The notes below the pieces were generated by a model, which was not told the origin of the DNA, made no database searches, and was given only the letters and a program-made list of their open reading frames with translations. A stretch of DNA of 54,990 nt, the filler included, from Sluysia triapertura (Eukaryota): assembly GCA_046118255.1 (NCBI GenBank). It is 4 parts of 4 records of this genome, joined end to end, with 100 filler letters (N's around TTAATTAATTAA, not from the genome) between each part and the next. Parts side by side here need not be neighbours in the genome. Positions count along the whole stretch, not along the records: positions 15,087 to 30,769 come from JBJNIA010221578.1; 3 more parts are not named here. One strand, written 5' to 3'. The position numbers and the translations under genes are program-made. Below, one piece after another: positions 2,719-47,121 of the stretch. Position 1 is the stretch's first letter. Each line of letters opens with the position of its first letter.

Positions 2719-4247
2719 AACGGAAAACGAATCTGACGAAGTAATTGAATGGGAAAATGAAATTTTGGCATCATTTCCAACTGAAGATTTGTCCGCTATT
2801 TCTGCACGTACTGAACAATTTAAAGAAACTTATTCTGCTGCTGCTATTGTTTCTTCTGCAAAAGACATTATCAATCGCCGTAATTGTAATTCCGGGTCCA
2901 GTAGCATCTCGTCTGGTATCGGAATCACTAATAATAACATGTCGTCTACTTTACACAACAAGAGACCATCTCCCGATTATTGGAATAATTCAATTTCGAA
3001 AGGTTCTTTTTGAATTTTGATTGGTTTAATTTTTGTGAAATAAATGCCTTTAAGATCAATCAATTCAAACTGAATCAAATTGATAATTACATTTTCCATT
3101 AGAATTTCCATTAATGAACACTTAATACAATACATAGACTCAATTTATATGTTATTTTATTAACAGGTTTTTATTCGGACAATGGATTTCCTCCAATGGA
3201 AACTTCCAATCCAATGCAGGGATATGGTTCGAAAATGGATAACAAATCAAAACTAGGGATTAATTATTTATCGAATAATTATGCATTATTTCCAAGTCAA
3301 CATGGATATCAGGATTTAGAGTTTGTATTTTTTATTATTCAATAATAACTGCATTTAATTCGATATATTACTGATAAATGTGCTAACAGTAATTATGGTA
3401 TTATTATTACCAGGGCCGAATCCACGGTTTTCATCGCCCGGGCAAAACAAAATTTGGTGTCCTTTATACAAGAGTATACTATTTACTGCGAATTAAAAAA
3501 ATATTTAAAAAGGCAAAAAAGCAAAATTACACAATAAAAAACTGTGTAACAAATTTATTTATTTAAAAAATAAATAGTTATTTACTTACAAGCGATACAA
3601 CATATGAAATAACATAACGAGTGCATTTGAAGTTATAGAGATGTACAAGATTTTTTGTAATGCTATTTGTCAAAAATTCAATAAGATAGTTAATTAAATT
3701 AATTTTTTTGAAAATCAGTTTGTAAACAGTTTACAAGATTAAAATAATTAGCGTTGTGATCTTTATTTGGTATTAGTAAACAAAAAAATTTATTGCTTGC
3801 TAAAAATCGATTTTAATTTATAAAATCTAAAAAATAATGATTGTAAAAAATATTTTATTTTTATATCGGCGCCCGGGAAGTCGCCGACGTAATGATGTTT
3901 CAGTAATTATTTGATAGTAGATATTAGCGCTAATAAAATGATAAAAGAAAAATAATTTTCGAATATGTATTTTATAGTAGATGTTATCCATTATTTGAGT
4001 GTCATAGAACACCTACTACAATATGGTTGATAATTTGGTTCAGAGTAAGCTTGTTTATGATATTGATTTTGATAATTCTCCACATTCTTTTATGAAGCAA
4101 GTGATGGATGATAATGATGCCGATTTTACTGAGAATAAGAATGAGAAACCTGACTATATAGTTGATCATGCAGAAACTAATACGTTTAAAAGAAAACCTG
4201 ACAATTTAGCTGTTCCGAATCCAGTACATAGAAATGTCATTGATTAA
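2719..4247 (+). CDS. Probable 3' exons of an unidentified spliced host gene (Ser/Asn-rich)
   Basis: Higher-GC open segments after acceptor-like sites (ttactttcag at 2718; taacag at ~3166) give GTENESDEVIEWENEILASFPTEDL... and GFYSDNGFPPMETSNPMQGYG..., plus ORF 4023-4247. No family recognised. Confidence 0.4.
3411..3890. mobile_element. Possible hAT-type non-autonomous element/MITE in an intron
   Basis: Begins CAGGGCCG (hAT-like terminus); GC-rich GCCCGGG motifs near both ends flank an AT-rich core. Confidence 0.3.
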
Positions 4248-4982
4248 TCGAGATTCATAAAGTTTAATTTATGCATTACTATCTGATAAGTTTATTAAAT
4301 TTAAAAAGTTACCAAAAATTGATAGATTATTAATAAATAAAACAAAAAATATAAGGATATTGTGACAATGTATATTGTGATAAAATAACAATAAAATTTT
4401 ATTATAATGAAAACCGAACAATAATAATAAAATGTGAATATTATAATAAAAACATTTTATTTTGGGAATTTATTATACTGAAATGAATAGTTTATGACTG
4501 AAAATAAAGTAAAAAAACGTAATAGAAATCCTTAATTTCGATTTTAACGACGAACACCAAAACTTCAACGCTATCAAAGCTGAATTATCAACTTACCCAC
4601 CGATTGAGATTCTGACTTGTAGCTACAATCTCATCTTGAATGGTGTCTGCAATAGCAACTACACAAAGAAAATTTCATTTCGCATTCCGACATCAAGAAG
4701 TAAGATTTACTGATACAAATTTTTAAACTAATTTAAAGCTAGTTTTAAACCACAATTTAATATCACGTCAAAACACCTGCATTCATCTTCCTGTTCCCAA
4801 AATCATTCTGTATTTGATAACTAAGACAAACTTAGCTTTAAATTATTTATTTATATCAATAATTTTTAATAATATAAGAGACCCGTATTATATAAATATC
4901 GCTTTCGTACTATAGTCTAATCCAGCAAGTAATTAGGAACTACTTTAAATTATATTAGCTCAATTATTGTTACTCATAAAAA

Positions 4983-5160
4983 ATAGATAAGTTAATAGAT
5001 TTTATTGATGAGAAACTTACACTTTCGATCCAAAACAAGGAAGTTTGGAGAAACATAATTAAAGAAAAAGTGAACCAAAATTCTAGTAAACCGTTCGGTT
5101 GTTTACAAAACAATGTATTATTCGTGATTATATTGTTAGCAATGTTTGGAATAAATAAAA
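4983..5160 (+). mobile_element. Diverged fragment of the Bcl-2/env region of the 15.7-25.5 kb retroelement family
   Basis: Translates without interruption IDKLIDFIDEKLTLSIQNKEVWRNIIKEK...NNVLFVIILLAMFGINK, versus INKVIEFVNKKTKLWVEEQGG*RNIIKGK...NNMLFVIILLVMFGINK at 16765-16993. Confidence 0.85.
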
Positions 5161-5577
5161 TATTTTCTCTGTCAGATACTGAAAATTATATTGAATTCCC
5201 ACAAAAATAATAGTCCAATAAATATCATTTTATTTATAATTATATAATTCGGATGGTACAGAAAGAAAATGGCATGAATCGAAAATGAAAGCTTATAGTA
5301 AGTACAAGGAACTAGATCCAGATTAAGAAAATGTTGATTGATTTGAACAATCTTGTGAAGTATAACTCAAGAATTTACATTTTAGTGTGCAAAAAAGATA
5401 TTCAAGGTTTCGTAAGTTTGTTCAGAATGATGGTGATATAATACTCGAACTTGATTAATCATTAACGTTTCTGCATTCTTCTTTTTCTATCTGCGATTAG
5501 AAGAAACCGCCAAAAGAAGAGCAAGAAAAGAAAATGATTTATTTTTCAATAAATAATAATAATAATTTCAAACTCAC

Positions 5578-7225
5578 TTCTTCGAATTTCATTGAATTGA
5601 ATGATTTCATGAAAGTAATAAGATCTGGATAATCAGATAACAGAACCAACTGCACAAATACAGACTTGGTAGATGGATTCTTCAACGATATATACCGAGA
5701 AGAAAAGTTTCCAATTTGAGTTAGCGGTAAACTAACACAGTTCGGTTGTTGTTGTTGGTGTGATGTCGAGTTGGACATCGTACTAGAGCAACCGTCGTTT
5801 TCGCCATCAAAATACGATGCGTCTTGCGTGTTCAATAGATGTGGCCAAGTTAGTTTTATATTCAAATTACTAATGAATCCTTTAGCAATATTTGTATCTA
5901 ACTGAATGGTAACATTGAAATCATTGTCATCATTGGACACCAAAGAATCGTAGTGGTTTTTTAGTCTTTTATAGATGAAGACATCATAGTAAATTGTTGT
6001 ATCATTCAATTTTATCCCCCTTAACCACTGGTATCCGACTAAATTATTTTATTATTATTATTATTATTTAATTACAAATGCAATATTTAAATAAATTAAA
6101 TTAGAAATATTTGATATATATACATTTAAAATCAGTATATCCATATTTACAGTGGTGGCCAAATTATTAGACTAAAACAGGAAAAATATGTTTTTCTTTG
6201 ATTTTCTCAATATTTGCTACCCTGGACTGGAAACTCTCCAGAAAATCTGTGGGAGATTGTCAAAAGGAGAGTTTCTACCCATAAACCAAACACCAAGATG
6301 GAACTAATTGAAACCCTGATAAAAGTATGGCATCATCTGATGATGAGATCAAAGATTTGTGCCCAAGCTCATCCATGGCACGTGCCTTTAAGGATCAGGA
6401 AATCATTGGATAATAAAGAAGGGCAAACAAAGTACTGATATAACAGTTTGTACATATTTGATTGTGTTATCATTCTACATGAATAAAATTTCTGTATGTT
6501 TTGGATCTCAGTATTTTTTTTCCACCATTTTACATTATTTTCTGTGACAACAGCCAGTAGTAAATAAAGCATGTATTTATACACTTTTGATTAATAGTTT
6601 CACAGTAACCCTGAAAAATGGTCTTTAGTCTTCTGATCTTCTATTCCTAGACCTTGGACATATTTCACATTTTGCAGCTGAACTCGTCGCAAAGTTTTCT
6701 TTGATTTCAACGATCAAATGTTTCAAAAACAAACTCCTAGATCTGTATATTTTCAACATAAATTCAAAGCAATAATTTCGAATATTGTATTATATTATAT
6801 TGTTGATTGCAAGATGAGTTTAAAGAAATCTTATAGCATTACAAATCAAATACAACAAATACTAACTGTTTGTGGAAAGAGAAAACCCCACATAACACGG
6901 TACCTTGCCATTACTCGTACTACTGCTTAATCTGAGATAAGCAGCCGAAGCAGATCCAGAAGTAGATCCAGAGAATTTATCACTTTTCACAAATGCTTCT
7001 GACATGGGATCTTCACAGTTGTGATGAGAACGGTAACGGAAAATTCCTACTCGAGTTCGTGCTCCATTCGGATTTATAAGAATAGGAAGATTACGACCGT
7101 GCTGTACTTCAAATTGAATGCGACTATCATTTGGAATGAAGTGGACATTTACCAGTTCCAGATGATGTGTATAATTACTTTCTATTTCGGCTGGCAATTC
7201 GGAATCTTTGGTCTGAAAAGCAGAA
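5578..7225 (-). CDS. TMEM131: TMEM131-like transmembrane protein, internal exons (~7225-6865 and ~6039-5578)
   Basis: LTWPHL...LPLTQIGNFSSRYISLKNPSTKSVFVQLVLLSDYP matches my recollection of the TMEM131 'LSWPS..FPLT...ITLENP..PVYVQ' block. The upstream exon has a DxRIxF segment and CYVG. GTGAGT donor at ~5577. Confidence 0.65.
6149..6540 (+). mobile_element. Tc1-like transposon remnant (internally deleted) in a TMEM131 intron
   Basis: CAGTGGTGGCCAAATTATTAGACT terminus preceded by TA; ORF 6214-6438 WTGNSPENLWEIVKRRV...LIKVW resembles the Tc1 'WPxNSPDLNPIENLW' motif. Confidence 0.8.
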
Positions 7226-8816: not shown

Positions 8817-11800
8817 TTTGAATAGAAATTAGAAAATATGAGTTATTTTTAGAACATTACTGTTAAAATTAAAATATATAATATTTTTGGGATTGGTGAA
8901 AGATAAAGGTAGACATAAGGATAACAGAATAAAATAATGAGCATCATTGAAGAATTGAAATATGATATTATGATTAATAATAACATACTTGAATTAAAAT
9001 AAAAGAATGAGAAATATGAAGAAATAACCATTTAAAATATAAAAGTATATTTGTTAATTAACTTAATTAAAATTTGTTTAATTTGGTAATTCAATAAATA
9101 ATATTTGTTCATGATATAATAATATTGGATTTATTAGTATTGAGTTTTATTAGTATTTTTAATGATGAAGTCAACGTTGATAACGTAAAAATTAGTTATT
9201 TAATTAATTTTTAATTTTATTTAATTAAAGTTAAAGTAAAATATGATCCGATGTCTGAGTGTTAATAAAGTATATATCAAATTGATACCTATAAAGATAC
9301 TAATTCAAATATTTATTCAACTTGACTCAAAACAAATTGTACAAAAGTTTCCTCTGAGAAATAAATTTATTATTTCATTAATTTTATTCTTAAATTAAAT
9401 TGACAAATTATGTTATTAGTACAGTAGCATTGTAATAATGATTTTAAATTTTCATTAGATGCTATTAAAACGATGAGGAGATTGTTATCTTTAGATAATT
9501 AAAATGAGAATGAATTTGAACAGAGACGGAAATTCAATCAGTAAAATTGGTGGGATTATTATCGACTAAAAGAGAATAGATAGTTCAATTTCTAATCATA
9601 TAATTGCTATATAAGCAGTTACATTTTTGCATAGATTTTGAAGTAAAAAAAAGACAGAGATGAGAGTTAAGGAAATAAGACTTTCTAGCTATAGGGACGC
9701 TGATTCAGTTCATCAGTGGATAATGGTGAAACTGAGGTTATTTCTTTAGCAATCATCCAAAATAAAATAGTTTAGTATAAAATGGGAATAAAGGTTGGTA
9801 ACGTGTTCAATATTGATTATATTTTGTATTAATATGTGTGCTAAAATTTAAATAAGTTGTATCACTGCTGGTTGTGATTTGTCTTTAAAGAATAATTTAC
9901 ATTTTTATAAAGAATAATTTGTATTATTGTTGTTATAAAGAATATTTTGGTTGTAATCTTGTGATGATATTAAAGAATATATCGAGATTTTGAATTTATT
10001 TAGTTTGCTGTGGTTTTCTTAAAGATAAACCCACGGAAAATAAATTTTAGGGGGGTTCCGGTTAGAGTAAACGTCTTACAACTAGTAGTTAGCGCTTCAG
10101 TTAAGAATTTTACTGTACTAGCTAACACGTTCCTAAAAAATTTGGTGCGAGGGTCTTAATTTTAAATAGCACAATAAATAAAAAACTCAATTAACTTTTG
10201 AATTATGTTAAACAAAATGTACGCGTATATTAGGTTATGGTATAACATAGAAAACAAAATAAAACCTAATTATTATTTTATGATCCAAATCCTCTTGGGA
10301 TATTCGATCTAATTGCTTTCAAAATTTAAGTAGAAAATGTCCCCTCAATATATAGGGTTCTTTACAATATTAAATATAAAAATTGATTTTTCCTGCATTT
10401 TAGGATCTTGACTTATAAAAATCAAAATCGTCTTAACAATAAAATAAAAATCATCTTATAATAAATCCGATCTGTATGTTCAATATATTGTCATGAAGAA
10501 AATCGGTTAAAATTACAAATGGCGCTGAATATATAAAATGGCGATTTTCATTAAACTGATGGAATGTTCTGGAACATTTTAGAAGCTTCTCTTCTATTTA
10601 TAGAAGCGAATTTTTTTAGAAATTTTATTTTCTTTTTTGGAAAATAAACATTTTCAAAGTGTTTTTAGACATTTATAAATAATTTAAAAGCATTTTAAAT
10701 GGTCGTGATGACAATCTAACAAGTTATTGAGTTTTAATTTAATAATTTTGGAAAATAAAAGTATTAAAAGATACAACAATGTGATAAATAATTCCAGTGA
10801 TATAATTACGATATAATTGTGTTGGTCAACCTTTATAACTATTAAATTTTATAAAAAATTAAGTTTTCAACACTTTAAAATTCACATATCTATCTCCTAT
10901 ACACTCACAAAACAGTTCATCCACCAAAACTAAGTCATACTCACAATCCCATAATATACAAACCACATTCATAACCAATACCATCAATTTACATAAACAG
11001 ATCCATTAAAAACATGCTACTCGCATTCATAACAATCAAACTACAACCACATTCTAAATTATCTACTCGACATCTTCGAATCAATTTCAACCTTTCAAAT
11101 TCATCAATTATTATCACATAATCCCTAACAGCACAAAATACAATACCACTTAAAAACAACAAGCGAACAAATCACATTAGCAACACTGTACAATCAACTT
11201 TCGAATATACTAAAAGTTGTACTATAATTTATCTTTTCGCATTTACTAAACGACACTCTTCTTAAGGCATATTAATCTCAATCAGAAACATAAGTCACCA
11301 TCTAAAAATTCACTATAGCGTTCTGCATTTCTGCATCTGCTATCACACCTTGAAACGTTAATTACACATGTAAAATTTATTTAAACTAATATTTACTTGA
11401 AGATTTTAGCTCTAAACATATTTAAATGTAGTCCAATATGTTCAGAAATCAATAAAATTTTAAGGAAGATTGTGTACAGTTTTTAAAGAATCCAAAAGTT
11501 TATGCAATGAATAAGAACAATAACTATAATATTGTTCATCTTGTTATTACATTCAATTCCATCATTTTTTATTTTATTTCAATTTAAAATATGTAAAGAA
11601 GAAATAAATACAAGAAAGACAGATCTTGTGAAATTTTGGATAATAATAATGATACTAACATTTTGTTATTATTATTATCGCAATTATTATTTTTTAATTT
11701 TAATTTTTCATAAATTTTCAATTAACTTCAATCAGCAAATTATCACCATTTATACTGACATAGTTAATCACTATGTACAAATGAGTGTCAGCATGAATGG

Positions 11801-12084
11801 TGGTTTATCTCTTATCTGTTAGTCCATTATTGTTGGCCATTCAACCAGAATAATAATCATTTTTCTTTCTGGTAAACAATCCTGGTTGGATGGACAATCA
11901 CTGGTCATCTGGTACAAAAATAAAATTTCGTAATAAATAAAATTCTCTTGCTTGAGATTATTATGTAGTTATATGCAGTAATCGAATTGAATTATTTAAT
12001 ACAAGTAAATTGGTAAAATCAGAAATTTTTGAAAAAAAAGAAAAGCTGACAAAGACATGGATGAAAGATTACTAGTTATGTGTT

Positions 12085-13240
12085 ATGATTTTAAACTTAA
12101 TTACATCATTCCGTCAATCTGTAAATGAAATTAAAAGGTTGTTTGAGATAAAGTATGATCCTAATTGCCTAATATCAGATATACTATTGAAGTTTTCTAT
12201 AGTATCAACTAAGAACAGCAGTAAATTATTTAGTTTAGTAATTAAGCAATGTCATTCAATTCTCGTACGTAATTCAGGACACGTAGTCCCAGTTTTAGAA
12301 TGGTTAAAGAAAATGTTCCAAGTTTATAGTTTTGAATCATTGGATCCAATTTATACACAATATTTATTTATTTTTAGTCAAGGAACCATTTCAGTTACTA
12401 ACATCTAACGCTATAACGAGATATATTGTATTTTTCGATACTCGTTTATTTACAGAGATTATGCTTAAAGAAGAAAAGAGTAATAGTATAGTAAATCAAG
12501 TCAATATGGTGGATGAATTTATTATTTTCTTAATCCATTTTCTGAAAGATCACAGTCGTAACAAAGACAATATCGCCGTGTCATTTAACATTTTAACGAT
12601 CGCTTTTAGTTAAGAAAACTTGACGTATGTAGCACAGGATAATCTTTTACTAAATGTTCCACATTTATTCGTATTAGGTAATTATTAACTTTATCATGTG
12701 TTAAATACTAAGGATGCAATAAATATTCATAGTTGTTCTACCCATAATGTAACTAGTCATCATATTAATTTTGATAATGACACTACAGCTATTGATGTTA
12801 TAGTTACATCAAGTGATCGATGTTTCAGGAGTATTCTAAAGTCATCAGGTTTGTCAATACTTTTAAATCATAAAAGAAACACCATTTTTAAAAAGTCTAA
12901 AAAGATAAATTAAATAAATTTGCTTAATGTGTCAATGATATTACTGATAATTGTAAAGACGTTTGTATGAGTATTAGTAAACGCGTCAATGACATAACAA
13001 CTCGCGAATTTTATAACATTAGCACTGAACTTATGCTAGATTTATCCAAGATCGATACTACAGATGTTTTTGCTCTATTGGAAATCTGTTTATTCAAAAA
13101 TAATGCCAAACTTAATTCTGAAGAAGTTAGTTGCACATACTGCCTAAGGTTCCAAGATCCAAATATAAATGCGTGGAATTCGCAAATTTTGTGGTGTACT
13201 AACAACATGATAACTCCAAGGTAAAGTCAAATGAGGTACG
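12085..13240 (+). pseudogene. Cluster of overlapping/frameshifted ORFs of unknown origin
   Basis: Four same-strand ORFs with coding-like composition; no motif recognised. Confidence 0.25.
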
Positions 13241-14189
13241 CAAAGATACGGCAGTAAAATTTAAATTATTTGTGTTGTTTAAAAATAAATAATTTTTAAA
13301 CTTATTATTGTTCTTTTTGATAGACTTTATTAAAATGTTGATTTTAAACTTGCATAAAGATAGTAAACGTAATATTCATAACGAACTTAGATTTAATGAT
13401 ACGAATAAAAATTATAGTTATTTTGATTTCCAAATTAAAAGACTTATCACTAAACGAAATTGTTTTCATTTAAGTTTAACGCTTCAAAACCTAATCATAT
13501 CAAATTTCTCCCAATTAAAATTTATATTACATAAAATAAATCAAAATGAAATATTAAATACAATTAAATAAAATAAAACATTAAGAGTATCTTCGTAATG
13601 CAATGAAATTTATGTTATATTAGTACAAGTACTGTTGTTTAAATGATTTTTATATCGATTCCAGAATTAATTTTGTCAAATCAGGTGAATATTTGTAGAT
13701 ACTAAATTATCAAAGCTGAAATGGGTCCAATTTCCAAAATTGTTCCAAAAAATTCTTTTGTTTTATTCAACAATTCATCAAATATTGTAGTAGAAATTAC
13801 AAATATTAAACCAATATTAAACTTTAGTGTTCTTTAATTTATTTACTTTACTTCCGATCTAAAATTAATTAAATTTCTGTGGAGTCTTTTAATAATTTAT
13901 GTAATTTTTCTTGATAAAATCGATAATAATGCCAGTTATATCTTAGGTGTAAAAATAACGCCCTTTTTACTACCAAAATAAAGAAAAGTAATAAACATAG
14001 AATAATATAGTAAAATGTAAAATTTAAAAAGTTAATGTAAAACTAATAATTTTATAAAAATAAATAAATTCTTAATCAATAACTTTAGAACATCAACATT
14101 ATGGAAAAAAATATGAATAATATATAGTTTAATATTACTAAAGAAAATATAGCCAGAACTATATTATAGAATGTGATTAACTATTATAC

Positions 14190-14525
14190 TGTTTGGATAT
14201 GGGCTTAAGTCAACCATATATGGACTTATTATTGTTAGGCGGAGCGCAGCGAGAGGTCTCTGGTTCGATCCCTGGTCAGTCCATTTTGTATTGTCTAACA
14301 TTTGGTGAGCCCACATATCGAATATCCTTCTGATGTTGAATTAAACGATTTACAAGATGTTTGAAGACAAGATGTTTTATATGTTGGGATATAGGCCTAA
14401 TGTGCCACTTGGTATGATTGACTATTCTAATCTAAAAATTGTTTGACGGGGCTGATAGCTCAGTGATCGTGCAGCGAGAGGTCCCGCGTTCGATCTCCGG
14501 TCAGTCCATTTTATGAATTCTAACA
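14190..14525 (+). mobile_element. Tandem dimer of the tRNA-containing repeat (module - PBS-like - spacer - module)
   Basis: Module 1 TGTTAG...GGTTCGATCCCTGGTCAGTCCATTTT...GTCTAACA (14233-14300), then TTTGGTGAGCCC, a ~140 bp spacer, and module 2 TGTTTGACGGGGCTGATAGCTCAGTG...GGTCAGTCCATTTT...TCTAACA (14440-14525). Confidence 0.75.
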
Positions 14526-14679
14526 ATGGGGAAAAAATTGGTAATGCAGAAGTGATAAAATTCAACATTTTTCATGGATACTATGAAACTATTAATCAAA
14601 AGTGTACAAAAACATGTCACAAAAAATGTTAAATGTTGGAAAAAAACTACTTTCTCCAAAAAATTCTGATGAAAGTAAA

Positions 14680-14986: not shown

Positions 14987-15085
14987 NNNNNNNNNNNNNN
15001 NNNNNNNNNNNNNNNNNNNNNNNNNNNNNNTTAATTAATTAANNNNNNNNNNNNNNNNNNNNNNNNNNNNNNNNNNNNNNNNNNN
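14987..15085. other. Assembly gap with TTAATTAATTAA linker
   Basis: N run with a central all-frame-stop linker; identical at 30770-30869 and 43293-43392. Confidence 0.95.
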
Positions 15086-15524
15086 NTATATTAAAACCTA
15101 ATATAAATAGCTTACGTTTAATAAATAAGTATGTTAGTTCCAATTCTTTTATTGATGATCCGACCAAATTTCACACGGTTGTTTCCAATTTATAATGTAA
15201 ACTCAATTCGAAATCCTTGCGACAATCCCAGATAAAGTCTTCAATACCAAATGGATTAATAAATTTATTCTTGAAAAAGATTCAAATCCAACGAAGTATG
15301 TACTGCGAGTATTAAATTCTTCCACAAAAGATTTTTAAGATTTAAAATTTTTATGTTTTTAACTTGTGTGAATCTTATAAAACTGCAAGCTATTTATATT
15401 AAATTCTTTATCAAAATTTATTACGTATTAAAAGATAATTAAATATTAATTTTTTGTTTTTTATAAAAATAAAGTTAATAGACAATTGTTTTAATTATCG
15501 AATAAAATAATCTTTAAACTTGTA

Positions 15525-15612: not shown

Positions 15613-16203
15613 ACAATTACATGAAATTTAATATCTACATAATTAATTTCATCTACATAATTTCATAAAATTTAATATCTACACTCCCGAACTATCATTC
15701 ATTGAAGATACAAAGACATTCCTCACCGAATTAGAAAATGATGACGATATCGATAGAAATTTGGATAAAATTTTGAATTTGGACTTAAATATGTTTAATG
15801 CGCAGAGTATTAAAGCAAGTTTGGCTATATTAAGTGAAGCCAGCAATCCTCACCAATACAAAGCATGAAAGTTATTTAAAAAGATTGCACTAACGGAAAG
15901 AAAAAATAGAAAAATAAATGGACTTATCAATATTTTTACGGAATTACCAGTAACCTCTTTGGTTCAAAACATTATTGACATAATAAAATTGAATGACCCA
16001 TCAATTATGAATGTGGATTTATTCTATGACAATAGATATCTAATTCCTACAGATTTCTGAACGATTATGGTTATCCATTAGGAAACCACGAGAAAATAAT
16101 AAAGGCTGTTACTACTAATTATACTGTCGAATACGAAAATTTATTTGAAAATATATCAGAGGAGGAAGTAAATGCAAATTCTCAATCATTCTTAAGACAA
16201 TTA

Positions 16204-16830
16204 ATGGATGAAAATGATGAAGAAGTGATAAAAAATAATGATATTGAAATGGTAAAAAATGATGATACAATAGAGAAACATGATTATATAGTGAATCTTA
16301 ATAAAAACCCACATGTTGAAACAAGTGATAAGGAAACAAATACAATTAAAAGACGGCCTGGTCGACCAAGAAAAAACGAAGAAGATGCATTAGTAACTTC
16401 TAATCCCGCTAAAAGAAATGTTATAGATTTGACAAAGATAATAGACGAAAATGAAGAAGAAATATTAGAATTTGATACAAAAAACATAGTTTACGCATTT
16501 TTATCTAATACGTTTATGAACTTCAGTAAGTATAAAAAATTGTTACCCAAACTAAAAGACTATAAGAGTACAATAGTAAAAATAATAAAACAATTAGAAG
16601 AAAAATATAAGGATAAAGATATTAGTGACTTCATAGAAAATGGACAGTATAAATCAATTATTAATAAGCAACTTAGTAAGGGGATAAATAGAGAAAGATT
16701 TAAAATAATTTTAGCTTATACTGTTTTTCAATGTAGTAAAGAAAGGATAATTGATAAGAATAAGATAAATAAGGTTATAGAATTCGTTAATAAGAAAACA
16801 AAGCTATGGGTTGAAGAACAAGGAGGATAG
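16204..16830 (+). CDS. Retroelement accessory ORF: acidic region, AT-hook and Bcl-2-like domain
   Basis: KRRPGRPRK (AT-hook); FDTKNIVYAFL (BH4-like), IVKIIKQLEEKY (BH3-like), LSKGINRERFKIILAY (BH1-like), LWVEEQGG* (BH2-like; TAG where TGG expected). The interrupted frame extends upstream to ~15690. Confidence 0.7.
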   Translation: MDENDEEVIKNNDIEMVKNDDTIEKHDYIVNLNKNPHVETSDKETNTIKRRPGRPRKNEEDALVTSNPAKRNVIDLTKIIDENEEEILEFDTKNIVYAFLSNTFMNFSKYKKLLPKLKDYKSTIVKIIKQLEEKYKDKDISDFIENGQYKSIINKQLSKGINRERFKIILAYTVFQCSKERIIDKNKINKVIEFVNKKTKLWVEEQGG

Positions 16831-16903
16831 AGAAATATAATCAAAGGAAAAGAAAACCGAAGAAACATCGAATTTACTTACAACTTTATTCGGAAACAAT
16901 AAT

Positions 16904-18870
16904 ATGTTAAACACAGCTATACCACGATTAGGAAATTCAACAAATAATATGCTCTTCGTGATAATATTATTGGTCATGTTTGGAATAAATAAATCTGAAG
17001 CAATAAAAGCCTTTGACTGTAACCAACCACAAATCGGCAGGAAATTCTCATTACTGGATAGAGAAGACTGCCCGGAATCAAGATCAAGTAGAATTCAAAT
17101 AAAAGAAAGACTTTAATGTATATCAAGAAGGAAATCGAATAACAACTCTAGTTAGAAAATGGATGGTTAAAAGATCAGTGGTCATCATAGTCATTCATCG
17201 ATATTAGAGTTACCGTATGTATTAAAACCATTTAAGATTTTACCGAATAATTGTAGAGATGCTTTCGATTAGTCAAAGGAGACAAACTAAGAGTAAGAAA
17301 TAATGAGAAAATTATCTACAACATTAGAACTGCGGAAAATGTATTAACAGATGGAACGTGCGAACAAGGATCTATAGAATACGAAGGAAAAATATATGAC
17401 AATGTTGTAGCTCAAGAAACTTTTGTAGTAAGTTTGAAATCTTTTAATGAAAGTTTTGATATTGAAAAAGGAAAGATGATGTCTAGATCATTAAGTAGAA
17501 TGGATCAAACAAGTTGCGGTACAGGTGAGTCTATTCTGATATATGAATTAGATAAGTTCCAGTGTCCTTTAATATTTTAAAAACAAATAAAATTCAACTT
17601 AGTATCCGGATTTGTTTACCAGAATAATGATGATTTACCAATTGAAGAAATAAACAAAAAGGAACAAGTACAACAAATAGAAACTCCTACTATTATGATG
17701 GCCAGTAGAGAAGAAGATGGATTAATTTTCATATCAAAAGGAACAGTAATAAGGTCTGGAAAAGAAATCACCGAAACTAATTACCAAGGTATTTACTTAT
17801 CTGAGAAAACAATACTGCAAGCCAAAAAAGGAATAGATGCAAAAAATATATAATTAAACAGTTACTTTAATAAGAAGATAGAGTTCTACTATCATCTTGG
17901 ATTAATATCTTTGGAAAAAATTTATCAAATTATGATTGCTCGAGATTGTCAACTGAATAAAGAAATACTGCACAAAATTGGCAGTGGCCATAACAAATCC
18001 TGATTTAGTTGCACCATTGTTACCATTAGAAGGTGTATTTGGAAGACTAATGGGAGAAGTAATATACACTTACAAATGTAACAAAGTAAAAGTCCAATTA
18101 AGACCAGCAACGGAATGCACAAATGAATTACCAATAATATACGGAAAAATAGAAACTTACTTAGAACCAGTAAGAAGGGTAATATTTCCTAGTGATAAAA
18201 TTAAACCAAAGATAATGCATTGTTCAAATGTAATGGCTCCGGAATATAGAATAGACGAAAACTTATGGATTTCACTACCACATAGAACACAAATCAAAGT
18301 ACCGGAAATTATTGGATTAACAGAGTTAAAAGGAAAGTTGAAATTCTTGGCAACAAAAATATACCGCATTCAGGTATGTATACAAGTGAAGACACACAAT
18401 CAGCATGGCGGGAAATACTGTTTCCAATAAAAAGATCAAAAGTATTAACGGATATAGTAGATAAGGCAACAGTAGAAAAAGACGGAAGAATAAACTTCGA
18501 ATTATTGTTAGGACCAGATCACTTTAAAAGAGCCGCACAAAATACACTAAAACAAATTTGAAGTAATTTTCTAATTTTAGGTCAAGCTTTCTCAGGATTA
18601 ATTGGTACTTACATAATTATTAAAGTAATAGCGTTAATAATATCCCAAGTTTTCTCTGTTGTAGGGATTTATACGATTTCAGGATTTACTTGGAGATTGA
18701 TAATAGGTTGCTTCCCATTTTTGGCGAAGTATTTATTACATCATCATGCTAACTCACAAATAAATGCGTTGAGAAAAGAAAGAAGGAGAATGGAAAATGA
18801 AAATGTAGCATTACGGACAATTCAAAATGATGAAAAATAAGAAATTGAAGAGTTAAAGGAAAACCTTAAA
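16904..18870 (+). pseudogene. env: Envelope glycoprotein, chuvirus/herpes gB-like (class III fusion) type; disrupted
   Basis: Signal-like MLFVIILLVMFGINKSEA then IKAFDC...C. The block NPDLVAPLLPLEGVFGRLMGEVIYTYKCNKVKVQLRPATECTNELPI...YLEPVRRVI is typical of chuviral-type glycoproteins. C-terminal hydrophobic segments at 18565-18740 (FLILGQAFSGLIGTYIIIKVIALII...). Confidence 0.8.
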
Positions 18871-18947
18871 AATCACAAAAAGATATACAAAAGGATAATC
18901 AAAGAGATAAAATCTATCCAAATCCTCCAACGGCACCGATACCGAAT

Positions 18948-19421
18948 GTGGTTTATATGATAATATGTGCAAACAATAACTATAAAAATTCCAAGAGGCC
19001 AATGGCTAACGTTAAAATTAATGGAAGAACAATTTTGCCACTTGTGGACACAGGAGCCGTGGCATCACGAATCAACGAAAATCAATTAACAGAAGGAGAA
19101 CGAGGAAACCTTGCAAATCATTTTTCACATCTATCAGGAGTTACTGGAGATGCCATACATATTGTCGGAGTAATGAAAGCTGTATGTGAAATAGGACAGA
19201 ATAAAGTCGAAGTTAAATTAAGAGTAATGAAGCAATGTCCAGAAGATATGATACTGGGGATGGATATACTATCACAATTAAAAGGAGTAATTCTAGATTT
19301 CGATAGTGTTAAACTAATGGATAGTCATTCAAACAGAACAATCGACGATGATGATGTCTACGTTGATGAACCATTATTGTTGCTAAGTAGAACTGAATAT
19401 AATGCCAGCAAAAACAAATAG
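18948..19421 (+). pseudogene. pol: pol: retropepsin aspartic protease
   Basis: VKINGRTILPLVDTGA ... DMILGMDIL. Confidence 0.92.
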
Positions 19422-21085
19422 TTCATTAACTGGCCAAATTATGTTTATAGCTTCGGAAACCAACCAAGAAAAATTGGATATAGGCATTGCAGATTCAATT
19501 TATAATAAGTGCGAAGGAAAGATACCCGTTCGAATTATAAATTATAAGAATGATAATAAATGGCTATTTACAGGAACCAAATTAGGAAGAATTGTTAATT
19601 ATAAAACACCAACACATATTAACGTAATAACCGATACAAAAAATAATACAATAAAATTACAACGGGATATACAAGAAGAGGATTATGGAGAAATTCAGAT
19701 CAATAACAAAAATTTAACCAAAAGGCAGAAAGAACAACTATATGAAGTTATAATCGATATCCAAGAGCAATTTCAAAAAACAAATACTATATCGGAGATT
19801 CTGTAATCATAAAACATGAGATCCCATTAACAGAAGATAAAGTGATTCGAAGAAAACCTTACAGAATTCCTATTTGCAATCAAAAAGAAATGCAAAATCA
19901 AATTGACACTATGAAGAAATCTGGAGTAATAAGGCCGAGTTTCTCTCCTTTTTCATCACCAGTATTATTAGTAAAAAAGAAAGACGGTACAGTACGATTC
20001 TGTATAGACTTTAGAGAATTAAATAAGATAACAAGAAAAGATGTATTCCCACTATCACGAATAGACGAGATGTTAGACAAATTAGGGAATGCCACTTATT
20101 TCACGACTTTAGATTTACAAAGCGGATATTGGCAGATAGAAATAGCGAAAAAGACAAACATAAAACGGCGTTCACGTGCGGAAATGAATTATACGAATGC
20201 AAAAAGATGCCATTTGGTTTAACAGGTGCACCAGCAACGTTCCAACGTTGTATGAATTTTGTACTATCAGGGTGTAAAAATGTCATGATATATATAGATG
20301 ACATTATAATATTTTCAAAGGATTTGAAAACTCACTTGGAAGATATACATAATATCTTAAAAAGATTAGAAGTCGCTAGACTTAAGATAAAGCCTACAAA
20401 ATGTGTATGGGCAGAAGAAAAAGTCGAGTTCTTAGGACACATAGTATCTAAAGATGGCATTAAACCAAATCCAAGAAATATTGAAAAGGTAATTAAGTTT
20501 CCTCAACCTGATAACGTTAAAAAGGTTCAGAGCTTCCTAGGATTAGCTAATTATTATAGGAGGTTTGTTAAAATTTTGCAAAAATTGCACAACCACTTAG
20601 AAAACTTACAAAAAAGGATGTATAATTTAAATGGACCGAAGAACAGACAAAGGCATTTAAGGAACTAAAAGAACATTTAACGACAGCACCAATACTGATA
20701 TATCCGGATGTTAACAAACCTTTTATACTGACTATGAATGCTAGTAATTAAGCTATCGGCGCAATTTTAGGTCAAAAGAATAAAAATAATCTTGAAGCAG
20801 TTATAGCATACGCCAGTCAAAGACTTAACAAAGCAGAAATGAATTATTCAACAGTAGAAAGAGAATGTTTGGCATTAGTATACGCATGTAAATTGTTCAG
20901 ACATTATTTGTTAGGACAAAAAGTTTACTTCTACACTGATCATAAACCTTTAACATATTTATATAATCACCGAGATGAAGTCAGTAGGCTTAACAGATGG
21001 TTCAATAAATTATCGGAATTTAACTTGGAAATTGTTTATAAGCCAGGTAGCTTAAATAATGGAGCCGATTGTATGTCTAGATTGA
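19402..21085 (+). pseudogene. pol: pol: linker, reverse transcriptase and RNase H (frameshifted)
   Basis: SPFSSPVLLVKKKDGTVRFCIDFRELN, TLDLQSGYWQI, MPFGLTGAPATFQR, YIDD, FLGHIVS, FLGLANYYRRFV; RNase H NYSTVERECLALV...YTDHKPL...NNGADCMSR. Confidence 0.97.
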
Positions 21086-21169
21086 CAAATGTAGATGACA
21101 AAGGAAATATCAATTTGATACAAATTATGTCAGTATCGGGAAAAATGCAGAATTCTAAAGAGATTATTA

Positions 21170-22400
21170 AACATCAGAGAGAAGATAAAGGAATTTCGAC
21201 TATTCTAGATGGGTTAGCTAAAGGAACTTTAAATGAATTACAAGCAAAAAGATTAGCTATCATGGATGGGATATTAAGATTCAAAAATAATAAAGACGAA
21301 TGGAAAACTATTATACCAGAATCACTAATTATACCTATTTTAATACAATTTCATGATGGACAATTGGGCGGTCACTTATCAACGAGGAAAACGTTATCAA
21401 GAATTAAAAGTAAATACTATTGGGAAAATATGGAATCAGATATCAGAAAATGGTGCAAGGACTGTTCAATATGTTGTCGACGAAAAAATACAGGACAGAA
21501 AACTAAAGTACCACTAAAACCTATGCCAGTACCATTATCACCAATGGAATTTACCGCTATGAGTATTATGGGTCCTCTTCCAGAAACCATTAACGGTAAT
21601 AAGTATATAATTGTATTCGCGGACTATTTGACAAAATGGCTAGAGGCTTACCCGATGCCTAATCAAAAAGCCGAAGCGGTGGCACAAATATTGGTAGAAA
21701 AGATCATTTACAGATATGGAACTCCTTGAAAATTATTAACAGATCAAGGAACTAACTTTACCAGCGATATAATCAAATCCGTGGCTAAAATCTTTAATAT
21801 TCTTCGAATTTACACATCACTTTACCATCCGCAAACTGATGGGTTAGTAGGACGTTTTAACCGAACTCTTATTAATAGGATTCAATCCTATATGAACAAT
21901 AGACAGACTGATTGGGACTTATATATAGCACCATGTCTTTTTGCATATAGAAGTTCTGCCCATCGAACAACTAATTTCACTCCATTTTATTTAATGTATG
22001 GTAGCCAGTAGGTTTGGAATTGGTTCCTCTAACTTCACAGTACTTGGAGATTCCAGAATATGTAACCACAATGAGATGCATGGAAACAGGTAGGTCTTCA
22101 AATTAAATACTCTCAAGAAATATATAAAGATGCATTCGATAAAACAGCGAAAGAACATACTTTTAAAATAGGCGATGAAGTATTAATAGATTATCCAATA
22201 ACTAAACCTGGTCATTCATCTAAATTACATAAACCTTTTAAAGGTCCTTATCTAAAAACAAAGTTACCGATACAAATGTGTTTGTTAAGGATCCTAATAA
22301 AGTTAATTCTGAAACGTTTGTAGTGCATGTCAACAGATGTAAAGTGGCACCGAAAGAGGAATATAATTTAAGAAATAGAAAAGTACAAAAATCAAAATTG
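21170..22400 (+). pseudogene. pol: pol: integrase (HHCC plus DDE core, catalytically dead) and C-terminal domain
   Basis: HDGQLGGH...CKDCSIC; AMSIMGPLP (D->S), TDQGTNF, YHPQTDGLVGRFNRTL (E->G), TPFYLMYG; VVHVNRCK...YNLR tail. IN after RH is the Gypsy order. Confidence 0.95.
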
Positions 22401-22494
22401 AAAGGATCGAGATAAACCGCCTTCAATTCATGCACTAAGGAATAAACAAGGAGTATTTATGATACATTCTCATGGAAATGACCTAGCTCATATA

Positions 22495-22750
22495 ATGCAA
22501 AATGTGCGGTTTAACGGACGATGGGTTAGAGAAATCGTAGATACCGGCGCTACTATTACTGTGGTTCATAAAAATTTTCTAACTACTTAAACAGACCAAG
22601 TCTAGTAACATATAATGTTAATCAAGCACCTAATGCTATATAGAAGTATTAGGACAATATGTACAAACTTTAGTAAATGTTTGGGATAATAGCCCATATG
22701 AATTAATATTAGGAATGGATGTTATAAACAAATTGGAAGATATGGTTATT
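22495..22750 (+). pseudogene. Second retropepsin-like aspartic protease remnant
   Basis: Manual translation NVRFNGRWVREIVDTGATITVV (22501-22566) and SPYELILGMDVINKL (from 22691). Confidence 0.8.
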
Positions 22751-23084
22751 TACAGTAAATATGGATTAAAAAAGTACCTCCAGGTTCAAACATGATTATA
22801 CCACAACTGGTAGTTCCACAGGTCAGTGATGAGCTAAAATTATATCAAATGCCTGTCAAATCCACCATTACAAGTTCCAGACTTTCCATTACGTGACATC
22901 GCCGAATCTACACTTCATTTATCAGACGTGTCATGGGGATCACCATCAACAATTACATCAGAGAAGAATTCGGATTCAGGAATCAGCTCAGATATTCAGA
23001 ATGTAGTGATGATGACTAAGAAAAAGAAATTGTCTTAATAAAAATCGTTGTGGGAAAATAACTTGATAGCTTTCGATCTTAATT

Positions 23085-25250
23085 GTGATTTTTCTATCAC
23101 TTATAACTCATGTCATGGCAACAAAAACAGACGAATATAAAAATATTAACATAGCTACAAATCATGGCAGGGAACAGAAAATAATAATTGCCGATATTTA
23201 CAATCAATATTGGAAATTCGAATTTATTTCTAAGAAAATAATTCTTCGACACAAATTCGAAATCTATTGTATATATATAAAGCTATTGCTAGTGGGAAAA
23301 CCACATCATTTAAATGGTATCCCACATTGTCTACATTATCGTTATAGACCGATGCTAATAACCTTTTCTCTAGACATCCCAAGAAATGCACGAGACATCT
23401 GGAAATTCATCAAACGAATAGATCAATTGAGAGATGGAGAAAAAACGAAAACACAGATAACCTTGTCGAATTATAGTACAATTAAGAAACAAATACAGAA
23501 AGTACAACGGGACACTTATAAATTCTTTACATTACTAATTTTTGCGGTACTATATATATTTTGGACCATACTCTATTTATCTCAAATAGGTGGGAAATAC
23601 GGGTTCCTGCGAATAATAAAAATCTTATACCTTTGATTTTGAATACGATAATTACAGTAGTTCAATGTCACGAACAATCTTTTAAAACGAAACATTTTGA
23701 ATTCTATAATGGAAACAATGAAGTAAAAGTTAAGATATTGAATCAAAACATTCATGCCAAATTTGCATGTTTAAAACCTGCTAGACTTAATTTTAGGTCA
23801 TGGATCATATACGAAAATTATATTAATAGTAAATTGAAATATCCAGTCACGGTTTGGTCAGATATTTTACCTGTCGAAGATAGACATTATAGTGAAATTC
23901 CGTCATTCATCAAGTTATTTGCATTTTGCATTTAAAGGAACAAGAAAACATTTAACAAAATTGGAGATATTACGGAATGATCCAGCATTAGTGATATTAA
24001 TTGTGGCGGCAATACTGTTCGTAAGCGCTTTAGCTGTTTGTTTCGAATAGATGTCGATACCCATGTTTACCACATAACAATAATAATGACGACGCGTATG
24101 CAGTTCCACATAGAAACAATTACGCTCCTCCTCCAGGCATGCCAATACTTCTACCTCCAATTTATGAATATGCTACAAATAATCAAATACCGCTCATATA
24201 TGGAGATTGGCAAATGACTCAAGTAAAATCTACAATCTTGATATGTATCAATCTATCTTGTATATCAGGCACAAATTATTTATCAAAAAACAATATACCT
24301 AGAATAATTTTAGTATCTAGCCAGAAAGTTTATGCAAAAATATTAACAGACAAAATTAAAATATTTTCCGTTCAAATAATATGTTATATAATGGATTGGT
24401 GTGAAATTGAGACAAGGGCAAGTAAACAAGATTTCTATTGATTTATATCTTGTATTGATCTTGCTGAATATCAACTAATTAATGTGACAATAACTATGGA
24501 ATTAGAATGATTCTCAGAGTGACTCCAGGACTATCTTCATACGGTATTACAAGATAAGAACTAAACCATTTGTTTTCCGAAAATCTTCAACAGTAATTGT
24601 GTTTCCAATGATCGTATATCGTTATCTCGGAAATGTTATACGTATTTAGGCATGGAACCCATTTTTTCATATAGGTTTTCAATACATATTGCATAATTGA
24701 CCACATGTAATGGCATTCCCATTTATTTTGGGTCAAGTGTAATATTAAAATCATAAAGAATTAATTTTGTAAATATAGTAAGGATCGTGCATATGACTGT
24801 ATGTGATGGTCATGCACTAACTAAAATATTACTTAAAAATTTTAGGATTGTTTAATTTTTCTAATACTATTTATTTATTATCTTATGCATTCTTATTTTT
24901 TAGTTAGAACAATCAACATGTGCCCGTTCTCTTCGCAAATATTTTGCTAAAACTTCCTATGCCTACGATGTCCTTAATCGCCCGCTTTTAACTCAACTAT
25001 CTTGTACCCCTTATTCTAAGCAATTCAATAACAATATTAAACCGCGTTTGCGAATAAAGAATTTTCTAAGGGATATCCAGGAGATAAGGATTCAGACATC
25101 TCTGAGGCTAAGGATATCGATGATGCCCGTCCCTTCTTACTAGGCCACTTACACGAAAAAATCATGGTGTTGCTGAACCCATGTTTTATTATTAAAAGTC
25201 TCGACTTGCCTTTTGGTTGGCTTAAGGGAGTTACTAACTTAACCATTTTT
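23085..25250 (+). pseudogene. Disrupted accessory ORFs downstream of pol, with hydrophobic segments
   Basis: Same-strand ORFs 23085-23636, 23561-23935, 24139-24441; TM-like FFTLLIFAVLYIFWTILYL and PALVILIVAAILFVSALAVCF. No family recognised. Confidence 0.5.
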
Positions 25251-29837: not shown

Positions 29838-30869
29838 GTTTGAAATATAAATTAGAAATTATTTAAACAATATCGTATTATTTAATTTCTTTAGATATAT
29901 TTTCCATAATTTAAAAATACTTCACAAATTTTTAAAATTTAATTTATTTTAAAGACGGTTAAATAATAATATATTAATTTATGTTGCGCTAATATCTACT
30001 ACAAAAACATTACTTAAAAACGATTAAGAAATACATGTTTCGCTATAATTATATTATCATTTTATAAATTTCACAATCACCCATTTTCTGTTAGTTGGTT
30101 GTAAATTATTATCGCTGTTAAAAGGGATGTTAATAAGTAATATTTTATTTTGATCCTATAACAAAGTAGACACATAAGACATTAAGTACATTAGCGGAGA
30201 AAGGGCCTATCTCTTAACATAAACCTTTACACAAATATAAAAACAAAAAAGGATGTTTCCAAAATAAACTAAATAAATTTCACGTTATAACAATATTTTA
30301 AATTTAAAAATATTTCCAAAATTTTTGATTTATGAAATAATTAAATCAATGTTCTTATTTTCCATTACATAATTCATGTCTAAACATATTACAACTGATG
30401 CTTTTATACTTTCTCATTATTCAACCACTTTTGAGTTTTATAATCCTACATATTCCTACACAAATAATTTGAATATCCTTTGAGTTTCACCGACAATAAC
30501 ACCACTGAAAATTACATGGCATTATTTGTCAAACTTCAATGATCACAAAACACAAAAATTTGATTAAGGTTTAACCATTATATTACAATACTTTTCTTAA
30601 TCCATTTTTACTTAAAGTACCTTTCATATTACTATTGACACAAACTTCAGCTTTAGAATTAGTTGATTTTCAAACAAACTATTTCATAAATATTTGACAT
30701 TCTTTCTAAATGCTCCTCTTTCAAAGTTATCATTTCTAATTAGTAAATTTAATGTAAACGACGCATATANNNNNNNNNNNNNNNNNNNNNNNNNNNNNNN
30801 NNNNNNNNNNNNNTTAATTAATTAANNNNNNNNNNNNNNNNNNNNNNNNNNNNNNNNNNNNNNNNNNNN

Positions 30870-36797: not shown

Positions 36798-37199
36798 CCG
36801 TCAAGAGTCATTGGAACAACCCTTAATCAAAATGTCACTTTCTTCCATTCATTCAGTTCATCGCCACAGGTAAAAATTGTTTTGTGCTTGTCTTTCTGAA
36901 TTTCAAATTCTCAATACCCACTCTGTAAATCAAGAAACGTGAAGAATGTGGTGTACTACTTTATTCAACGTTTCCTGCATTCTTGGTAATGGAAATACGT
37001 CCTTTCTAGTTATATTCAAATAGGCATCAACTACTTTTCTCTTTAAATGAAACGGATGACGTTAAGATTAAGCTTCCTCATTCCAATCATAAACATTTGC
37101 ATAAAGCTGGAACTGATTCACAAAATTTGATAAAACTTCTGGATTACCATCAAGTGATTCCAGCTGGAGGACAAAAAATCTTATTGACTCAATATTCAT
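36798..37199 (-). mobile_element. Deleted Gypsy copy: gag N-terminus joined to an RT fragment
   Basis: MNIESIRFFVLQLESLDGNPEVLSNFVNQFQLYANVYDWNEEA...PFHLKRKVVDAY (retrotransposon gag-like), then NITRKDVFPLPRMQETL...FLDLQSGY*EFEI..KDKHKTIFTCGDELNE, closely matching the RT at 20025-20230. Confidence 0.8.
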
Positions 37200-43292: not shown

Positions 43293-43455
43293 NNNNNNNN
43301 NNNNNNNNNNNNNNNNNNNNNNNNNNNNNNNNNNNNTTAATTAATTAANNNNNNNNNNNNNNNNNNNNNNNNNNNNNNNNNNNNNNNNNNNNTTTAGTAA
43401 GACCCAATCAGAGCATAACTAACTAAATTACTAAATACAAATATCAACGCTCTGA

Positions 43456-46619: not shown

Positions 46620-47121
46620 GAAGTATCGATTACAGAAGCTTGTCCGAGTCCATATACTTTATTGAATAATGTTTGCTATTTGATAATTAATCAAAAAGTT
46701 TCATATTGTGAAGCTGAAAGACTTTGTGCTGAAAATAAAGGTTCTTTGGTATGTCCAGATCAATTCAATAAACTTGGATTTACAAATTCGTATTGGACTG
46801 GTGTAAATGATTTAATGTTTGAAAGATATAATAATAGAGCAAACTGGATGTGTGTGAATGGTTCAATTACAAATGCAATAAATAATTGGTATTTTGCTGA
46901 TCCTAATAATAACTATAATGTGGAACATTGTGCACAAATTGACAAGAACGAGTTGTATGACATACCTTGTGATAGATTACTTCTACCTTTGTGTTACTAT
47001 GTAGGATCAGAACCTTACTCTCTACAGCTGGTTCAAAGTTCTATTAATGGTTATTATGGAGGATCATACAACAACTGTTTCGAAGAATTTTGGACAAATT
47101 CACATTTTGAATGTGCACTGA
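46620..47121 (+). CDS. C-type lectin domain protein exon (possibly followed by the start of a PAN/apple-like domain)
   Basis: CPSPYTLLNNVCY...SYCEAERLCAENKGSLV...YWTGVND...NWYFADPNN...EHCAQI...LYDIPCDRLLLPLC is the canonical long-form CTLD cysteine/tryptophan pattern; acceptor ttctattag at 46620. Confidence 0.9.

Follow-up and report, generated by a model that had tools for sequence, protein, structure and literature searches.

Retroelements in which env lies upstream of pol have already been described from flatworms, and the statements made here about them concern the parts of the two papers that treat these elements. Arkhipova and Yushenova (2019; PMC6431247) report the planarian element Burro, whose mononegavirus-like env is placed in frame with gag on one side and pol on the other; its domains run Gag, ubiquitin-like, BCL2-like, Env, protease (PR), dUTPase-like, reverse transcriptase (RT), RNase H (RH) and integrase (IN). 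Chary and Hayashi (2026; PMC13524379) catalogue GAG-ENV-POL elements with gB-type envelopes in Platyhelminthes, Nematoda and Bryozoa, and state that chuvirus-like glycoproteins occur beside gypsy pol. A first-pass annotation of the DNA analysed here had assumed that such elements always run gag-pol-env, and had offered the position of env as unusual and as the possible mark of a distinct lineage; the assumption is outdated, gag-env-pol being published for Burro and in PMC13524379, and the claim to novelty falls because the order is already in print for flatworm elements in both papers.

The window, i.e. the whole 54,990-nucleotide stretch from Sluysia triapertura that was analysed, carries an env at 16.9-18.8 kb followed by Ty3/gypsy PR-RT-RH-IN at 18.9-22.4 kb (Pfam and profile matches), which is the PR-RT-RNase H-integrase order of Ty3/gypsy elements; all features are given on the + strand. 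The locus is very probably a decayed, non-coding Ty3/gypsy copy with a gB-type env directly 5' of PR-RT-RH-IN, and a likely member of the Burro-like gag-env-pol elements of flatworms. We infer that the host may be a planarian and that the element likely belongs to Burro. Decay is extensive, with 13 stops across 9 homologous segments and at least 8 frame changes. The element reaches past 16904..22400 on both sides, and its recognisable length is about 9 kb. No LTR-like repeat pair was found in the window, where the copy is decayed and lies near an assembly gap, nor was a purine run of at least 14 found 3' of the integrase; searches for tRNA genes found none, and a viral-contig scan returned no relative. 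In run X1, which may be the source of the window itself, 24,610 contigs match the window and only 1,540 of these reach 99%, indicating many divergent copies. Within the window itself, the spacer, the Bcl-2-like region and the env signal occur a second time at 4014..5220, in a more degraded state (blastn and tblastn self-matches), and there the Bcl-2-like end and the env signal fall within one stop-free frame.

The earlier reading of env upstream of pol holds, the PF24664 env match being followed by RVP, RT, RNase H and integrase matches up to about 22390, and so does its assignment of pol to the Gypsy type, as the closest PDB matches are Ty3 RT (E 1.4e-30) and Ty3 Gag-Pol (E 1.3e-22). A linker and aspartic protease occupy 18870..19330 (RVP, E 4e-9; gag-asp_proteas, E 3e-7), with LVDTG at 19041, in a frame open over 18870-19421. 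A conserved PR-RT spacer domain follows at 19399..19602 (profile of five relatives, iE 2.2e-10), at the place where Burro has its dUTPase-like domain; Pfam dUTPase gives no match in this spacer, and the dUTPase-like label is taken from PMC6431247. RT, with YIDD intact, and RNase H are spread over three frames at 19752..21040 (RVT_1, RT_RNaseH, RT_RNaseH_2), and an interrupted integrase comprising H2C2, core and C-terminal parts, its first catalytic motif degenerate, extends over 21300..22391 (Integrase_H2C2, rve), colinear with the metagenome contig L001 and with the database protein P0150. An RT tree of nine rows, all of them in-group and without outside references, assigns the window to no small clade with good support.

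Public assemblies contain intact relatives with a single frame. L001 holds one unbroken Gag-Env-PR-RT-RH-IN frame of 3,703 codons, with matches to zf-CCHC, ubiquitin (weak), Env, PR, RT, RH and IN, and is colinear with window positions 16994-22391 at 29-57% identity; the contig begins 96 bp 5' of its ORF and no LTR pair was found in it. Among 21 env-bearing natural proteins scanned, 15 have a protease after Env within one chain (12 distinct 90% clusters), seven run on into RT, and five have a Pfam Gag or zinc-knuckle match before Env; a scan of single-chain proteins can reveal fusions of env to pol, whereas pol-env elements whose env is an ORF of its own escape it. Matches to env also include stand-alone proteins of roughly 650 aa. 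P0153 runs Ty3_capsid, CCHC, Bcl-2 (E 0.0015, below the Pfam cut-off), Env, PR and ankyrin, an arrangement that matches the description of Burro, and in L001, P0033 and P0153 env is in frame with gag and pol in a single polyprotein, whereas the frame is unreadable in the broken window copy. The intact relatives encode one long polyprotein of Gag, a ubiquitin-like domain, in some a Bcl-2-like domain, Env, at least one protease, a dUTPase-like domain, RT, RNase H and integrase, often with a second membrane protein.

Upstream of env, the window has three pieces. The first is a degraded coding remnant at 15686..16054, a readable frame with one stop. Since a ubiquitin-like profile built from four relatives missed it (no match in the window, where the region is frameshifted; two matches in L001), its assignment goes by position and eye only, which make it a candidate for the helical and ubiquitin-like module that relatives carry at this place. 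The second is a 264-codon ORF at 16036..16830, in which an acidic spacer and the motif KRRPGRPRK, which we take to be AT-hook-like, precede the Bcl-2-like domain; a GRP motif also occurs 5' of env in P0002, P0003, P0010, P0147 and P0153, and a homologue search with this ORF found none among 3,538 candidates. The third is the putative Bcl-2-like domain itself, a BH1/BH2-like region at 16615..16872 with a stop near its end, which the first-pass annotation had missed. A profile of four database proteins, aligned without the window, matches it with iE 1.8e-4 and 15.4 bits against 10.5 for the best shuffle, and the domain alignment A2 matches Bcl-xL (E 4.4e-4). In Foldseek 43 of the 44 rows listed are Bcl-2 family, at E 0.48 or worse and TM at most 0.43, none significant; VIA gives Z of at most 5.7 with unrelated folds on top. 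Pfam Bcl-2 does not match the window piece alone and stays under the cut-off in all relatives, an atlas search with the piece gave no usable match, and a BH2-like motif is present in only 3 of 28 long relatives and in P0153. A BCL2-like hit from zebra mussel had no bearing on the domain. Taken together, these comparisons lend weak support to a Bcl-2-like domain just 5' of the window env, and lean towards the BCL2-before-Env order.

The absence of a gag profile match 5' of env in the window could be read as a gag-less, Env-first sub-lineage that starts at the ubiquitin-like/Bcl-2-like region and has its Gag supplied in trans or from a separate frame. Multi-copy depth in X1 begins at 15435, the bin 15087-15434 having a depth of 724 against about 26,000 beyond it, and P0001, P0002, P0003, P0147 and P0150 all begin without a Gag match, both of which are as such a sub-lineage would have it; however, the depth profile comes from a single run of contigs, the gene calls behind the database proteins that start without Gag may be truncated, and positions 14987-15086, some 600 bp 5' of the recognisable element, are an assembly gap. 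In L001, which is a 64% relative of P0150, an in-frame Gag lies upstream, and we regard a gag-less sub-lineage as improbable. The absence of gag noted in the first-pass annotation concerns only the env-pol junction, the intact relatives having an in-frame gag 5' of env.

The env, at 16949..18840, would encode a Monjiviricetes/gB-type fusion glycoprotein with an internal signal and a C-terminal transmembrane stretch (PF24664, profiles, hydropathy); stops and frame changes interrupt the gene. PF24664 (Monjiviricetes_fusion) matches two + frames in 15.6-19.0 kb (E 6.7e-20 and 9.5e-30), hydrophobicity marks a signal-like stretch at 16949, and positions 18586-18669 resemble a transmembrane segment. 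One frame piece of the Env is 54% identical to P0001, and a search of the PDB with a single env frame piece found no match; hhalign of the window Env to the env family alignment gives a probability of 98.6. The family profile, from 47 relatives, matches herpesvirus gB with E 1.6e-4, over about 74 positions only, and 39 of its 40 matches are gB. The chuvirus/gB-like fusogen of the first-pass annotation is thereby upheld: to judge by PF24664 and the family profile, the predicted fusogen is chuvirus/gB-like. In an env tree of 67 rows and 124 columns, which left out proteins shorter than 560 aa or with short matches, the window falls in no well-supported small clade.

Other env-before-pol groups exist and are not monophyletic in the sections of PMC13524379 that treat them, and the element could belong to one of these, i.e. 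nematode or bryozoan GAG-ENV-POL or mite ENV-GAG-POL elements, rather than to a planarian group. By eye, the window env shares motifs in domains I-II with the six Schmidtea rows in supplement 2 of that paper, and these motifs are not shared by the 10 nematode and 10 bryozoan rows compared. Of the six Schmidtea env motifs one matched a database protein, P0019, which by eye differs from the published row. The BCL2-Env-PR order is moreover that of Burro as described in PMC6431247, and no gag lies in the env-PR interval, so that membership in another group has a low probability, marginally below that of the gag-less sub-lineage.

At the env-pol junction itself, the frame that bears the protease does start at 18870, as first annotated, but env ends about 18840 rather than 18870, its frame being closed by a stop at 18838-18840. 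Neither gag nor a repeat lies between env and PR in the window, which agrees with the first-pass annotation; the spacer that it found lacking is present as a linker of about 97 codons, as in the intact relatives, where the linker measures 66-326 aa in 14 of the 15 natural proteins. A local join of a chuvirus-like glycoprotein gene to a Gypsy pol, by nested insertion or misassembly, would fit the differing env and PR frames of the window copy and the fact that no X1 contig bridges the junction among the matches listed (8 of about 25,000). Against this stand the same order and similar spacing in 15 natural proteins and L001, the alignment of P0150 across the window env stop to 18939, and nucleotide composition that is uniform across the junction with no repeat there, and such a join is very improbable, well below either of the preceding explanations. 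The recurrence that the earlier reading proposed to check is found in independent elements, and misassembly or nesting does not account for the junction. A BEL/Pao element with a chuviral glycoprotein does not fit, as the window env lies 5' of pol and Pol matches Ty3.

Downstream of the integrase there are likely remnants of two further modules. A second aspartic-protease remnant lies at 22420..22750 (tblastn; gag-asp_proteas, E 0.0046, below the cut-off), and a protease motif 3' of the integrase also occurs in P0002 and P0147. The stretch 23070..24250 likely derives from a second membrane protein, of type I (hydropathy, layout in relatives, multi-copy in X1), with a signal-like stretch at 23070, a cysteine-containing piece, a transmembrane stretch at 23988 and, about 26 codons on in another frame, YxPP. 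A matching C-terminal layout is found in four of five relatives checked; the tail profile of the relatives matches L001, gives no significant match in the window, and matches Tie2 FN3 repeats weakly (E 0.014), and nothing usable came from an atlas search with the ORF at 23.07 kb. Four close relatives, and L001 with them, have a second membrane protein as their last module, 3' of the integrase, and the window copy probably ends in the same way. It is a speculative and rather doubtful further step that this would be a second envelope protein, of type I, its ectodomain fibronectin-III-like and its tail carrying YxPP, acting as receptor-binding partner of the gB-type fusogen in a two-glycoprotein, herpes-like entry system made from one Gag-Bcl2-Env-Pol-attachment polyprotein. 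If the protein were an attachment factor, the elements would offer a compact model in which one retrotransposon chain gives envelope, enzymes and likely an apoptosis modulator.

For an intact element of this kind we propose a route in which the N-terminal Gag part would remain cytosolic, the internal signal would direct the ectodomain of Env to the lumen of the ER before being cleaved there, and the Env transmembrane helix would turn the chain back into the cytosol, leaving the Pol enzymes to be released there by proteases of the element itself. On particles that have budded, Env would then work as a class III fusogen for spread from cell to cell; host apoptosis would be the likely target of the Bcl-2-like domain. 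The window copy is incapable of making any step of this route.

Among known systems, mosquito BEL/Pao elements with a chuvirus-like glycoprotein (Dezordi et al. 2020, as cited in the literature) have the broad glycoprotein family in common with the window and differ in that the window Pol is of Ty3/gypsy type, with env before pol. The non-canonical endogenous retroviruses of nematodes (Sacco et al. 2022, cited in PMC13524379) also have env before pol, but by eye the ten nematode env rows lack the window motifs. Closer are Smed_errantivirus_1-6, the "ancient errantiviruses" of PMC13524379, which like the window have a gB-type (HSV/gB-type) Env before a Ty3/gypsy pol, and which are intact in 1-215 copies where the window copy is broken; the Platyhelminthes GAG-ENV-POL passages of that paper mention no Bcl-2-like domain, and the word "Burro" occurs 0 times in its main text. 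Compared by description, Burro differs in size, with up to 25 kb internal and giant forms of more than 30 kb with long LTRs against about 9 kb recognisable here, and in its Gag, MATH, BIR, ankyrin and LTR, none of which was found in the window copy; the description in PMC6431247, in the parts used here, makes no mention of a post-integrase second protease or membrane protein, of which the window likely has remnants. Because env before pol, a gB-type fusogen and a BCL2-like neighbour have each been published, the dead copy adds little by itself, and it serves rather as a pointer that links the 2019 description of Burro with the 2026 GAG-ENV-POL catalogue. With Burro/GYPSM1, the giant Gypsy elements that PMC6431247 describes from dugesiid planarians, it shares a mononegavirus-fusion Env directly before PR, a conserved PR-RT spacer, the order PR-RT-RH-IN and, with weak support, a BCL2-like domain before Env, and it has decayed as Burro has in one planarian, where fragments with stops and frameshifts are described.

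An envelope gene followed directly by pol is evident on the + strand of the window at 15.6-24.5 kb, where that strand is A-rich and GC is slightly above the flanks. Two frames match the Pfam family Monjiviricetes_fusion (E 6.7e-20 and 9.5e-30), and protease, RT, RNase H and integrase follow, one after the other; the best PDB match of the RT and RNase H-integrase pieces is Ty3. In env, hydropathy marks a signal-like stretch at 16949 and, at 18586-18669, one that resembles a transmembrane segment; a stop in the env frame lies at 18838-18840 and an open protease frame starts at 18870. The protease motif lies about 97 codons past the end of env, and in this interval profile search of the window matched no gag and no repeat was found, so that the order env-protease-RT-RNase H-integrase without intervening gag, as claimed in the first-pass annotation, is borne out. 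The window copy is dead; it carries 13 stops in nine homologous segments, eight frame changes between segments and a degenerate first integrase motif.

The junction recurs in independent elements. One env frame piece used as the query against 1.84 billion representatives returned 146 relatives, and a Pfam scan covered 24 of 153 database proteins (numbered as P0001, P0153 and so on), picked by rank and length, of which 21 carry Env. Protease follows Env within one chain in 15 of the 21 (12 distinct 90% clusters), with an env-to-protease spacing of 66-326 residues in 14 of those 15; the chain continues into RT in seven, ends at Env or shortly after in six of the 21, and has a Pfam Gag or zinc-knuckle match N-terminal to Env in five. 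RT or integrase precedes Env in none of the 21, a count blind to elements with env as a separate ORF after pol. At the DNA level, an intact relative on metagenome contig L001 is a single stop-free frame of 3,703 codons, colinear with window 16994-22391. Gag, with its CCHC knuckles, comes first in this frame, then a pair of ubiquitin-like modules, a stretch with a weak match to Bcl-2, and Env; two proteases and a spacer precede RT, RNase H and integrase, and the frame closes with a membrane tail. From sequencing run X1, possibly the window's own source, 24,610 contigs aligned to the window, with many divergent copies, and their depths add up to more than 26,000 in each bin between 15.4 and 22.7 kb; none of the contigs listed bridges the env-pol junction. 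Because the same order recurs in the single chains of relatives and in L001, a nested insertion or misassembly at this locus is very unlikely. One of the relatives, P0005 (an Env-PR-RT-RH-IN polyprotein), is labelled at NCBI as a hypothetical protein of a Flavobacteriaceae MAG, which likely reflects eukaryotic contamination of the bin.

The proposal of a chuvirus/gB-like fusogen also has support at the sequence level. Beyond Monjiviricetes_fusion, a profile of 47 env relatives matched herpesvirus gB (best E 1.6e-4, over only ~74 positions), gB making up 39 of the 40 matches listed, and the window env matched the env family alignment with a probability of 98.6%; a putative class III fold of Env is thereby supported by sequence.

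A Bcl-2-like domain is likely, though not proven, just before env. BH1- and BH2-like motifs close a 264-codon frame immediately 5' of the env signal, and a BH2-like motif occurs at the corresponding position in 3 of 28 long relatives and in P0153. Pfam Bcl-2 matches were all below cut-off (P0004, E 9.6e-4; P0153, E 1.5e-3; P0001, E 0.2), with none on the window piece itself. A profile built from four database segments, with the window left out of the alignment, found its best window match at 16615-16872 (15.4 bits, against a top score of 10.5 among the 999 shuffles reported), and a five-row alignment matched Bcl-xL at E 4.4e-4, all 60 matches listed being Bcl-xL or Bcl-2. The predicted structure is all helical (pLDDT 70.5); of the 44 rows listed by Foldseek, 43 are members of the Bcl-2 family (best E 0.48), and VIA gave its best Z, 5.7, on unrelated folds. 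Self-matching reveals that the Bcl-2-like and env-signal region is present a second time, in a more degraded state, at 4014-5220 (+ strand; ~59% nucleotide identity over 324 columns). There the end of the domain and the env signal share one frame, and past the signal the search found nothing that matches the remainder of env. Profile search of the window matched no Gag upstream of env; the first of three assembly gaps (14987-15086, 30770-30869 and 43293-43392, each two N runs around a 12-base linker) lies close by. A TMEM131L Ig-like domain at 5539-6048 (- strand, Pfam E 2.4e-9) marks a host-gene piece; both the element and the degraded copy are possibly located within this gene or close to it.

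Downstream of the integrase, on the + strand, are a second protease remnant (22.4-22.75 kb) and, by hydropathy, a signal-like stretch at 23070 and a transmembrane stretch at 23988 with a YxPP motif beyond it. In P0002, P0005, P0147 and P0150 the chain closes with an ectodomain that contains cysteines and LxPxTx[YH], then a transmembrane helix and YxPP, an ending absent from P0025. Since the tail profile has no significant match in the window, we infer homology of the window remains to these tails from layout. An alignment of the tails with the window piece weakly matched the FN3 repeats of Tie2 (E 0.014). At its boldest, the tail could be read as a second envelope protein that acts as attachment partner, which seems improbable. 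Three to six aspartic-protease motifs follow Env in one chain in P0001, P0002, P0010 and P0147, the last of which also matches C2H2 zinc-finger and ankyrin. Past the L001 polyprotein, an accessory ORF (12085-13473) has a weak, below-cut-off match to RNase_T, an exonuclease (E 0.0011), and a 222-aa ORF (11375-12043) has no Pfam match; neither has a match in the window.

Alongside the observed domain order, its single-frame recurrence in relatives and the decay of the window copy, we propose a topology based on hydropathy and on how polyproteins are generally processed. Gag would stay cytosolic, an internal signal would be cleaved, the gB-type ectodomain would be lumenal and followed by a transmembrane anchor, and Pol would be cytosolic, freed by the element's own proteases. 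Env, as a putative membrane fusogen, could let the element pass from cell to cell, and apoptosis is the putative target of the Bcl-2-like domain.

Elsewhere in the window, another Gypsy remnant (36800-37170, - strand) has a gag-like piece (37169-37002, iE 7.8e-5) directly adjoining an RT piece, which suggests a large internal deletion. A C-type lectin domain (46572-47147, + strand, Pfam E 3.3e-8) marks a second host-gene piece, and a 624-codon open frame (43456-45330, + strand) has no Pfam match at E 0.05. A short repeat in three copies (14246-14305, 14471-14530 and 49100-49159) with a tRNA T-arm-like GTTCGATC stretch is possibly a SINE; ARAGORN called no tRNA.

The first-pass annotation had suggested a possibly distinct endogenous virus lineage, a reading that gives way to precedent: env before pol, with such an Env, is already in print in PMC6431247 and PMC13524379. 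ORF1 of Burro, the giant Gypsy elements of planarians, is there described as holding Gag with CCHC knuckles, Ubi/SUMO-like and BCL2-like domains and Env, then PR, a dUTPase-like domain, RT, RH and IN, and Burro Env matches mononegavirus fusion proteins (PMC6431247). GAG-ENV-POL elements with gB-type Env are recorded from Nematoda, Bryozoa and Platyhelminthes in PMC13524379, which also reports glycoproteins of chuvirus-like type next to gypsy pol. Compared by eye with the rows seen from that source, the window env has motifs in common with the six Schmidtea elements of the supplement (Smed_errantivirus_1-6), motifs that the nematode and bryozoan rows (10 of each) lack. As neither the env tree nor the RT tree gave the window a supported placement, its Burro-like character and planarian host are inferred from the order of domains, the motifs in env and base composition. 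The element is a real feature and its kind is known; it is very probably a dead copy from the Burro-like GAG-ENV-POL group of Gypsy elements.
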